DNA of 64,000 nt, taken from the sequence record OP312987.1; one strand, written 5' to 3'. This DNA comes from Escherichia phage vB_EcoS_Uz-1. The position numbers were made by a program, and so were the translations under genes. The notes beneath the pieces are model-generated. The model searched no databases and was not told where the DNA came from. It worked only from the letters and a program-made list of their open reading frames with translations. Numbering within the stretch: position 1 is the first letter of the stretch; each line of letters begins with the position of its first letter. Below are positions 35,670 to 36,245 of this stretch, piece after piece.

Positions 35670-35707
35670 TAAAAAAGCCCCTCTATTGAGGGGCTTCTAT
35701 TTTTACT
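35670..35707. terminator. bidirectional intrinsic terminator
   Basis: AGCCCCTC-TATT-GAGGGGCT hairpin flanked by A-run upstream and T-run downstream, between convergent vRNAP (+) and DUF2829 gene (-). Confidence 0.75.
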
Positions 35708-36194
35708 GAGCTAACACCCAATCTTCTGCTAATACATCTGATTGAGATGGAACCCATGGCATAAACTGGTTATCAACGGTTTTAATACCCAGCCAATCCC
35801 GTTTCTCACAAACGGTATTTTCATGTTTATCCATGGCCCAATTTTCACCAGATACTAAGGTGATATACATTCCTTTTCCGTTCCAACCTTTACGGGTCAT
35901 TCTAAAGCCTGATTTGAGAATCTCTACTGCATGACCAAAGGTACAACCTTTTTCTACGTCACGGTATGCAGCTTCGAATGTAGCTTTAGGTGACCAGCTA
36001 ATATAGCCACGGAATTGGGGATGGTTGGACTTAGAGTCTGGATACTCGACTAAGTAGCCTTCTTCTAGCGGGTCTTCATCTGCTGGTACATCCCAACCAC
36101 GAAGTTTGCAGTATGTTTCTTTGCTCATCGGGAAACCATTTACACACTTGGTTCCAATGTAGTTGGTGAAATGGACTTTAATTTCTTCTGACAT
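35703..36194 (-). CDS. DUF2829-domain protein (Tad2-like fold candidate)
   Basis: Start at ATG 36194 (GAGG 6 nt upstream; track starts at GTG 36221). C-terminal half carries DUF2829 hallmarks recalled from the family: KGWNGKGM ... PWVPSQSDVLAEDW; N-terminal ~85 aa is an extra region. Confidence 0.6.
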   Translation of the reverse strand: MSEEIKVHFTNYIGTKCVNGFPMSKETYCKLRGWDVPADEDPLEEGYLVEYPDSKSNHPQFRGYISWSPKATFEAAYRDVEKGCTFGHAVEILKSGFRMTRKGWNGKGMYITLVSGENWAMDKHENTVCEKRDWLGIKTVDNQFMPWVPSQSDVLAEDWVLAQ

Positions 36195-36204
36195 AACTAC
36201 CTCA

Positions 36205-36245
36205 AATGAGAAAGCCCTCACTAGGAGGGCTTGTTTTGTTTTGGC
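36205..36245. terminator. hairpin with T-rich flanks (partial terminator/attenuator)
   Basis: AGCCCTC-ACTAG-GAGGGCT stem-loop between the 36313..36693 gene and the DUF2829 gene start; T-rich on both sides. Confidence 0.45.

Follow-up and report, generated by a model that had tools for sequence, protein, structure and literature searches.

A predicted Tad2 sponge joined to a domain that recurs with anti-defence sponges in an N4-like coliphage

The sequence analyzed here, a stretch of 64,000 nucleotides (nt) of Escherichia phage vB_EcoS_Uz-1 (record OP312987.1; the window), contains a small minus-strand gene that converges with the virion RNA polymerase (vRNAP) gene and follows a gene of the Acb4 family (Table 1). 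Its product of 163 amino acids (aa) has two parts, an N-terminal domain that is called X in the following and a C-terminal Tad2 (DUF2829) domain. Taken together, the results point to a two-domain anti-signalling protein, in which a predicted Tad2 sponge is combined with an X module and the gene of which would be co-transcribed with the Acb4-family gene, and we assign this reading a probability of about 0.78. The gene is of a known type in a known type of place, namely an ortholog of phage N4 gp49 inside a hotspot that has already been described. The promising lead is the X domain, which occurs together with sponges of many kinds and tells more than the Tad2 half does.

In the program-made list of open reading frames (ORFs) and translations, the minus-strand ORF 35703..36221 begins with a GTG codon. 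The ATG at 36194 is the likely start as judged from the sequence, and together with the GAGG Shine-Dalgarno (SD) motif in front of it this start gives the length of 163 aa that had been stated in an earlier reading of the bare sequence (the original prediction). The protein matches PHROG 872 over its full length (E=6e-67), is 100% identical to a protein of phage PD38, and shares 89% identity with N4 gp49 (160 aa; YP_950527.1), which has the same Pfam match. The region is 93% identical to the Escherichia phages Bp4, PD38, and ECBP1 (genus Gamaleyavirus, Schitoviridae), and by this similarity the window belongs to Gamaleyavirus, i.e., to the N4-like coliphages. Orthologs in RefSeq are already called "DUF2829 domain-containing protein", and that of Shigella phage Moonfish "Thoeris anti-defense 2-like protein". 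In the annotation of phage PhAPEC5, the counterpart of the gene is "similar to N4 gp49" and the adjacent gene "similar to N4 gp48". A Tad2 homolog in an N4-like phage, annotated already and located inside a described hotspot, was expected. N4 gp49 and the Gamaleyavirus orthologs (Bp4, ECBP1, PhAPEC5, PD38, Moonfish) share with the query the two-domain layout, the preceding Acb4-family gene, and the place at the end of the row, where the vRNAP gene comes next on the opposite strand. We found no paper that links N4 gp49 to Tad2.

For the C-terminal half, a hidden Markov model search gave a match of aa 85–161 to PF11195 ("Tad2-like") with E=3.2e-23 and 82.5 bits, well over the cut-off of 25, and the match covers positions 2–72 of the 73 profile positions. 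The DUF2829 membership that had been recognized from hallmarks of the KGWNGKGM type was therefore confirmed, and both motifs cited for it, KGWNGKGM and PWVPSQSDVLAEDW, are present in the translated product. A phmmer search against the PDB retrieved ModTad2 (9EIB, 8V3E) and SPO1 Tad2 (8SME, 8WJE) over the whole domain, with E values from 7e-17 to 3e-15; HgmTad2/AcrIIA7 and SptTad2 were aligned over the first third of the domain only. A monomer was predicted with AlphaFold2 (AF2) from an alignment of 43 two-domain homologs, with a mean pLDDT of 87.5. The Tad2 half of the model comprises helices at aa 86–94 and 151–155 and strands at aa 99–101, 110–114, 134–138, 144–146, and 159–161. In a Foldseek search, the C-terminal half matched 8smf, 8smg, 8wje, and 9eib with a probability of 1.0 and target-normalised TM values of 0.70–0.84, and these targets include crystal structures of Tad2 with bound gcADPR. 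This comparison of the monomer model with Tad2 crystal structures agrees with the family assignment.

The conservation of the ligand pocket was analyzed residue by residue. In SPO1 Tad2, the residues that touch 1''-3' gcADPR or its waters are W25, N26, I63, T65, D67, H71, W73, S76, T78, and D79 (Yirmiya et al.). Mapped through the HMMER alignment, they correspond to W104, N105, I137, T139, D141, M145, W147, S150, S152, and D153 of the query, so that eight of the ten are identical (W104, N105, I137, T139, D141, W147, S150, D153) and one change, T78 to S152, is conservative. Among the 43 two-domain homologs, conservation is complete or reaches at least 90% for W104, N105, T139, W147, S150, and D153. 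The original prediction had named the loss of this pocket as an argument against a Tad2 function; the pocket is kept. By sequence and model, the C-terminal half is thus a Tad2 domain.

The comparison with the characterized Tad2 proteins shows the likeness and its limits. SPO1 Tad2 (gp34.65; 8SME/8SMF/8SMG) and ModTad2 (9EIB) are of the same family and fold as the query, with roughly 40% identity over the domain; W25, N26, I63, T65, D67, W73, S76, and D79 of SPO1 Tad2 are kept, and its insertion between strands beta2 and beta3 is short as well. In contrast to the query, which has 83 aa of X directly before the tetramerisation helix, both are single-domain proteins of 89 aa, and H71 and T78 of SPO1 Tad2 are replaced by Met and Ser in the query. 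HgmTad2/AcrIIA7 and SptTad2 share the family and the gcADPR pocket with the query, but they have a long insertion (about 41 aa) that forms a second pocket for cGG and 3',3'-cGAMP, whereas that of the query has about 20 aa and an unrelated sequence.

Tad2 proteins are homotetramers, built as a dimer of V-shaped dimers, and the pockets are formed between protomers. By homology, the Tad2 half would form such a homotetramer, and two inter-protomer pockets would sequester the ADP-ribose (ADPR)-derived messenger made by TIR proteins. The messenger would be 3'cADPR (1''-3' gcADPR), possibly also 2'cADPR, His-ADPR, or N7-cADPR, and the Thoeris effector would never be activated. The specificity of Tad2 proteins is not uniform. 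Type I Thoeris is countered by SPO1 Tad2, type II alone by ModTad2, and types I, II, and IV by Tad2_71, and MoTad2 binds cUMP as well. Because the members differ in the Thoeris signal that they bind, the predicted ligand is not specified beyond a TIR-derived ADPR signal; by analogy, it is most likely 3'cADPR.

Several points weigh against this view of the Tad2 half. H71 of SPO1 Tad2, a water ligand, is M145 in the query. The ligand specificity of Tad2 is unreadable from sequence. The tetramerisation helix alpha1 comes after X and a linker of seven residues. In the literature, no binding or infection assay was found for the query protein, N4 gp49, or any X-Tad2 protein, and neither the Tad2 proteins assayed by Hadary et al. 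(Table S2) nor the candidates assayed by Tal et al. (Table S2) contain the X motif.

The insertion between beta2 and beta3 of the Tad2 domain differs in length between the proteins, with about 20 aa in the query, 24 in SPO1 Tad2, and 41 in HgmTad2. In HgmTad2, the longer insertion, residues 32–72, builds the second pocket for cyclic dinucleotides (Li et al.). Because the insertion of the query is short and SPO1-like, a second pocket of the HgmTad2 type is not expected. Among the 59 closest cluster representatives, the insertion has a mean identity of 33%, compared to 74–80% for the remaining protein, and at least five discrete types of insertion cassette occur. The cassette of the query matches that of phage N4, unlike those of most Gamaleyaviruses. 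This pattern is consistent with diversifying selection on, or recombination in, the region of Tad2 that would set a secondary specificity.

A different possible function is one like that of AcrIIA7, in which the query would be an inhibitor of Cas9 or of another CRISPR effector. Automated annotation with Pharokka gives the name "anti-CRISPR protein" to the Mimir124 ortholog and also to the Acb4-like gene next to it, and AcrIIA7 structures are among the weaker PDB matches. However, in the phmmer search the query was nearer to SPO1 Tad2 and ModTad2 than to AcrIIA7, and to our knowledge E. coli has no type II CRISPR system. Furthermore, Li et al. failed to reproduce an inhibition of Cas9 by HgmTad2/AcrIIA7 or other Tad2 homologs, both in vitro and in vivo, and Yirmiya et al. 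are of the same view. An anti-CRISPR function was therefore rejected on the basis of this literature and is very improbable. The labels in Mimir124 are probably automated mis-annotations inherited from AcrIIA7.

The original prediction had described the first half of the protein as an N-terminal extension of about 85 aa. Such a region is real, because the Pfam Tad2-like match covers aa 85–161, but it turned out to be an autonomous and widespread domain and not a mere extension. With a pLDDT of 92.7 in the AF2 model, X is a discrete fold. It has no match in Pfam, NCBIfam, or PADLOC and no sequence or profile match in the PDB, and a fold search of BFVD with X retrieved other X-containing phage proteins only. 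A first search with the N-terminal half of the query yielded 82 homologs, including standalone proteins of 66–99 aa and many proteins with X in front of PF21825. PF21825 corresponds to the 3'cADPR sponge Sequestin, which Tal et al. found through its Pfam fusions to Tad2 and Acb4. A profile search that started from standalone X proteins retrieved 2,708 clusters at E<=1e-3 and 1,337 clusters at E<=1e-10. The profile matches N4 gp49 with E=6e-38 and the N-terminal aa 5–70 of RyR-Tad (gp68 of Pectobacterium phage CB1) with E=2.5e-9. The family motif is YIGTK..A.PM..Y..LRGW.VP.DE...DEGYLVEY.DGG..N....GYISWSPK..FE.AY, and the query is a member of the family.

The partners of X and the conservation of its residues were quantified for the best 147 of the 2,708 cluster representatives (P0203–P0349). 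Nearly all Pfam partners in this set are sponges, namely Sequestin (42 proteins), Tad2 (38), Acb4 (14), and the Acb2/Tad1 hairpin (6); WDGH, AP2, and HNH were found once each. X lies at the N-terminus of 117 of the proteins and at the C-terminus of 11; it is internal in another 11, and 8 consist of X alone. Isolated phages encode such fusions as well: Clostridium phage CP51 has X-Acb4, Burkholderia phage CSP3 has X-Sequestin, and Pseudomonas phage Arace01 has Acb4-X-Sequestin. In addition, two Lockin homologs (Table S4 of Tal et al.) bear X, with E values of 3e-6 and 2e-5 when the nominal database size is set to 1e6. By these similarities, X accompanies six structurally unrelated, validated sponge families, i.e., Sequestin, Tad2, Acb4, Acb2/Tad1, Lockin, and RyR-Tad. 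In the literature, no paper was found that states an association of X with these six families. X was missed in the fusion search of Tal et al. because only Pfam families were searched and X has no Pfam entry.

The possibility that X is itself Lockin or Sequestin was rejected. No sequence, profile, or fold match to either was found, the comparison of X with the Lockin family (LockinA, PDB 9P8L, a beta-rich hexamer) did not indicate membership, and X is an added domain on both families.

Two types of known proteins can be compared with the query in this respect. RyR-Tad (Fedorova et al., 2026 preprint) is encoded in the same hotspot and likewise has an X-family domain followed by a gcADPR-binding sponge domain. 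In contrast to the query, its sponge is an all-helical dimer that resembles RyR Repeat12, not a Tad2 tetramer, and its X is divergent and shorter. The sponge-sponge fusions (Acb4-Tad2 in Pasteurella phage Pm86, Tad2-Sequestin, and Acb4-Sequestin in Pseudomonas phages YH6 and Ab09) are, like the query, small proteins of two compact domains in anti-defence islands. Both of their halves are proven sponges, whereas in the query a predicted Tad2 sponge is combined with X, a putative accessory domain.

For the role of X, the experimental data come from the divergent copy in RyR-Tad. According to the preprint of Fedorova et al., residues 1–86 of CB1 gp68 alone have no activity against type I Thoeris, and the domain is dispensable for type I Thoeris inhibition. 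In the crystal of RyR-Tad, the X-family domain is a dimer formed by a swap of strand beta1. The monomer model of the query X has a short, separate beta1 (aa 10–13) that could swap. X would thus be a self-associating accessory module, a strand-swapped dimer that stabilises or cross-links the sponge oligomer. Self-association or scaffolding was taken as the default because the CB1 copy alone is inactive against type I Thoeris and is a beta1-swapped dimer in the crystal.

A pure oligomerisation module does not readily account for several further findings. About 33 of 72 X positions are at least 80% conserved, and many of these are polar and aromatic. The linker between X and Tad2 is short and of conserved length in the two-domain homologs. 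On a metagenomic contig, a standalone X gene directly precedes a separate Acb4 gene. In Erwinia phage phiEaP8 (MH160392; locus L012:3001-3237), a standalone X gene for 78 aa takes the place of gp49; it is the last gene, converges with vRNAP, and has no Tad2 domain attached. The strong conservation and the standalone X at this position suggest a function of its own and speak against a scaffold only. X may therefore hold a binding activity of its own, and an anti-defence activity of X itself is a possibility that we hold only tentatively.

One form of such an activity would be a second sponge. X could itself bind a further signal or an immune component, and the protein would neutralise two pathways at once, as Acb4-Tad2, Tad2-Sequestin, and Acb4-Sequestin do. 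Fusions between sponges are common, Sequestin was discovered by the same fusion signature, and X shows this signature with six sponge families. X is short (~73 aa) and frequently standalone; it occurs alone at the phiEaP8 gp49 position and also directly upstream of a separate Acb4 gene. The strong conservation of its polar and aromatic residues extends over phages of hosts from Clostridium to Proteobacteria, and the X dimer in the RyR-Tad crystal leaves room for a pocket between protomers. However, the sole X that has been tested, the divergent one of CB1 gp68 (residues 1–86), was inactive against Thoeris I, and no ligand was reported in it. X is also acidic (median pI 5.0, net charge -3), in contrast to the positively charged pockets of known sponges, and it has no fold similarity to nucleotide binders. 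A second sponge is thus conceivable, yet it is not the expected outcome.

Alternatively, X might be a Tudor/SH3-like adaptor that docks the sponge on a host or phage protein, e.g., the RNA polymerase, a TIR/CD-NTase sensor, or a sponge-sensing guard, and would serve localisation or shielding. The acidic loop PADExPxDEGYLVEYxDGG, which is conserved, looks like a surface for protein contacts, and the fusion of X to structurally unrelated sponges would fit a generic adaptor. However, phages with X infect very different hosts (Firmicutes, Proteobacteria, and those behind metagenomes), and a single conserved partner is implausible unless it is the RNA polymerase. Docking on a target protein is therefore rather improbable, and a self-associating accessory module remains the preferred role of X.

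N4 and the G7C-like phages are model and therapeutic coliphages. For these phages, the presence of the Acb4 and Tad2 pair predicts which of the hosts with CBASS or Thoeris can be overcome, and which sponge sensors (e.g., Panoptes) may be triggered. If X were active itself, it would represent a new class of immune antagonist; if it were a universal accessory, it would reveal a requirement that is shared by all sponges. The X family, with at least 2,700 clusters, might even be a seventh kind of anti-signalling module, either a sponge for a further immune signal or a generic adaptor that cross-links sponges or blunts guards such as Panoptes, although we think this doubtful at present. The fusion partners of X would also be a ready list of candidate sponges, and the roughly 45 partner regions without a Pfam domain would be candidates for new families.

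Regarding these partners, 54 of the 147 best X proteins have partners other than Tad2, Sequestin, and Acb4, and about 45 of these partner regions have no Pfam domain at all. Small clusters of partners without a Pfam domain recur (P0263/P0333, P0275/P0325, P0230/P0335, and P0205/P0212/P0254). In P0319, P0252, P0302, and P0229, the tail is a degenerate "mini-Tad2" in which the WNGK motif is missing. By sequence, the partners without a Pfam domain are candidate new or decayed sponge domains.

Further arrangements of X genes were observed in other phages. On a metagenomic contig (locus L014:3001-3515), a standalone X gene for 75 aa is followed after 3 nt by a separate Acb4 gene for 94 aa, an arrangement that is a split form of the X-Acb4 fusion of CP51. 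The genes for X-Sequestin in CSP3 (locus L007:2495-2920) and X-Acb4 in CP51 (locus L009:2495-2959) are located in the head-morphogenesis block, between the portal/minor capsid and the major capsid gene. As these sponge genes lie outside the early/replication region, they may be expressed late.

Table 1. Features in and around the X-Tad2 gene (positions are those of the window)
Feature	Position	Strand	Remarks
vRNAP gene, convergent boundary of the hotspot	24938..35668	+	3,576 aa; ORF list and annotation of related phages
Bidirectional intrinsic terminator common to the vRNAP and X-Tad2 genes	35673..35698	.	G+C-rich stem, T-run on each strand
X-Tad2 two-domain coding sequence, N4 gp49 ortholog	35703..36194	-	stop codon 35703-35705
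Tad2 (PF11195/DUF2829) domain	35712..35945	-	aa 84-161; Pfam, PDB phmmer, Foldseek, pocket mapping
beta2-beta3 insertion of Tad2	35793..35855	-	aa 114-134; hypervariable, cassette-like in close relatives; lowest-pLDDT part of the AF2 model
N-terminal X domain	35955..36173	-	aa ~8-80; alpha/beta; strands 10-13, 17-24, 45-51, 64-69; helices 25-32, 70-76
SD motif GAGG, 5 nt 5' of the ATG	36200..36203	-	minus strand reads ...TTTGAGGTAGTTATG
Hairpin between the Acb4-like and X-Tad2 genes	36212..36232	-	8-bp stem, weak T-tract TCTCATTT, ends 17 nt 5' of the ATG
Second stem-loop in the 118-nt spacer	36269..36299	-	RNA fold of 36195-36312: dG -32.4 kcal/mol, z = -2.7
Acb4-family (PF13876) gene, N4 gp48 ortholog	36313..36705	-	Pfam E=7e-24; likely true start ATG 36693, 126 aa
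Terminator-like hairpin 5' of the Acb4-like gene	36762..36783	-	motif common with 36212-36232

The expression of the X-Tad2 gene depends on how the hairpins on its two sides are interpreted. The original prediction had placed the gene between two hairpin terminators. Both hairpins exist. The one shared with vRNAP has a stem of 11 bp on the minus strand and of 9 bp on the plus strand, with dG values of -18.6 and -17.5 kcal/mol and z = -5.1 and -4.1, respectively. The upstream hairpin (36212-36232), in contrast, has a weak T-tract; within a bicistronic transcript, it would probably terminate in part or stabilise the RNA. It has no equivalent in N4, where gp48 ends and gp49 starts at the same base, 34003, with no hairpin between them. 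As the two N4 genes overlap, they must be co-transcribed. In the window, in contrast, 118 nt with two hairpins lie between the counterparts, and a scan for sigma-70-like promoters gave no match in this spacer. There is also no room for a promoter after the upstream hairpin, because the 17 nt between it and the ATG hold just the ribosome-binding site. The X-Tad2 gene, at the end of the replication/middle block, would thus share a transcript with the Acb4-family gene upstream of it, and transcription would stop at the bidirectional terminator shared with vRNAP. Read-through from the Acb4-like gene, with the hairpin as an attenuator or RNA stabiliser, is the simpler reading, and the gene, which had been thought to stand alone and to be expressed independently, appears instead as the distal member of a conserved Acb4 and Tad2 pair.

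It could also be argued that both hairpins are full terminators and that the X-Tad2 gene is transcribed alone from a private promoter. Hairpins are present on both sides, and in phage PhAPEC5 ARNold terminators are annotated at the equivalents of both. The motif recurs in a third hairpin, located in front of the Acb4-like gene, which suggests one hairpin per gene. However, the upstream hairpin has a poor T-tract (TCTCATTT), the 17 nt from it to the ATG are taken up by the SD motif, and the spacer lacks a sigma-70-like promoter, although a promoter upstream of or within the hairpin is possible and N4-type middle promoters were outside the scan. Moreover, the overlap at base 34003 requires co-transcription of the N4 orthologs. 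An insulated gene is therefore unlikely, and co-transcription with the Acb4-like gene is preferred.

The upstream hairpin and the one in front of the Acb4-like gene, both on the minus strand, have the common motif AAGyCCCTCC-loop-GGGrCTTT, followed by ATTTGAG within 10 nt. The motif could be a reused terminator or leader element that is specific to the hotspot. In the surrounding 5-kb region, 16 terminator-like sites were counted, compared to 3.6 +/- 2.4 in shuffled sequences, an enrichment. A sub-threshold match to the Rfam STnc100 small RNA (28.8 bits versus 47; 35665-35745, minus strand) overlaps the bidirectional terminator and the 3' end of the gene, and this weak match is most likely just the terminator hairpin.

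The upstream neighbour was assigned by its PF13876 match and by orthology to N4 gp48 (123 aa, PF13876), with which it shares 45% identity; a phmmer search with this protein did not match a solved Acb4 structure. PF13876 is the Acb4 family of cyclic-nucleotide sponges, and experiments with the N4 gp48 sponge showed that Panoptes, a system that senses sponges, requires it for activation and is triggered by it alone. At the ATG at 36693 the protein begins with MATVSKE..., and a GAGG precedes the start. The C-terminus is a Cys-rich tail, CDGGGCTI, that is conserved in N4 as CEGGGCKI. Searches of PADLOC and NCBIfam gave no match for either sponge gene or for X. The identities to N4 of 89% for gp49 and 45% for gp48 point to mosaic exchange in the hotspot.

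In a June 2026 preprint, Fedorova et al. describe an "anti-signalling hotspot" of N4-like phages that reaches from the primase to the vRNAP gene and contains Tad2, Tad3, Acb4, and Sequestin. The order in the window is SSB, gp46, tRNA, Acb4-like gene, X-Tad2 gene, and convergent vRNAP gene, and the X-Tad2 gene is thus at the vRNAP-proximal end of the hotspot. The locus agrees with the described hotspot in its position between the primase/SSB block and vRNAP and in its variable small genes, which include known sponges. Across the Gamaleyaviruses, its content varies by zero to three extra small genes, and other members of the genus differ from the query by different beta2-beta3 cassettes and one to three extra small genes downstream. 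In Mimir124, Moonfish, and E20, one to three further ORFs (42–97 aa) are present between the X-Tad2 gene and vRNAP; they are absent in this window.

The gene had also been placed between the vRNAP gene and a tRNA cluster. On one side this is correct, as vRNAP adjoins convergently on the opposite strand. On the other side, the Acb4-family gene intervenes, and only one tRNA passes the Rfam threshold. ARAGORN called three tRNAs on the minus strand between 37006 and 38226, and the one that passes is a tRNA-Ile-like sequence at 37010-37083 (65 bits). The "Cys(aca)" and "Ala(cgc)" calls are below the threshold and overlap weak tmRNA-like matches. By sequence similarity, the "tRNA cluster" may consist of one tRNA and tRNA-like remnants.

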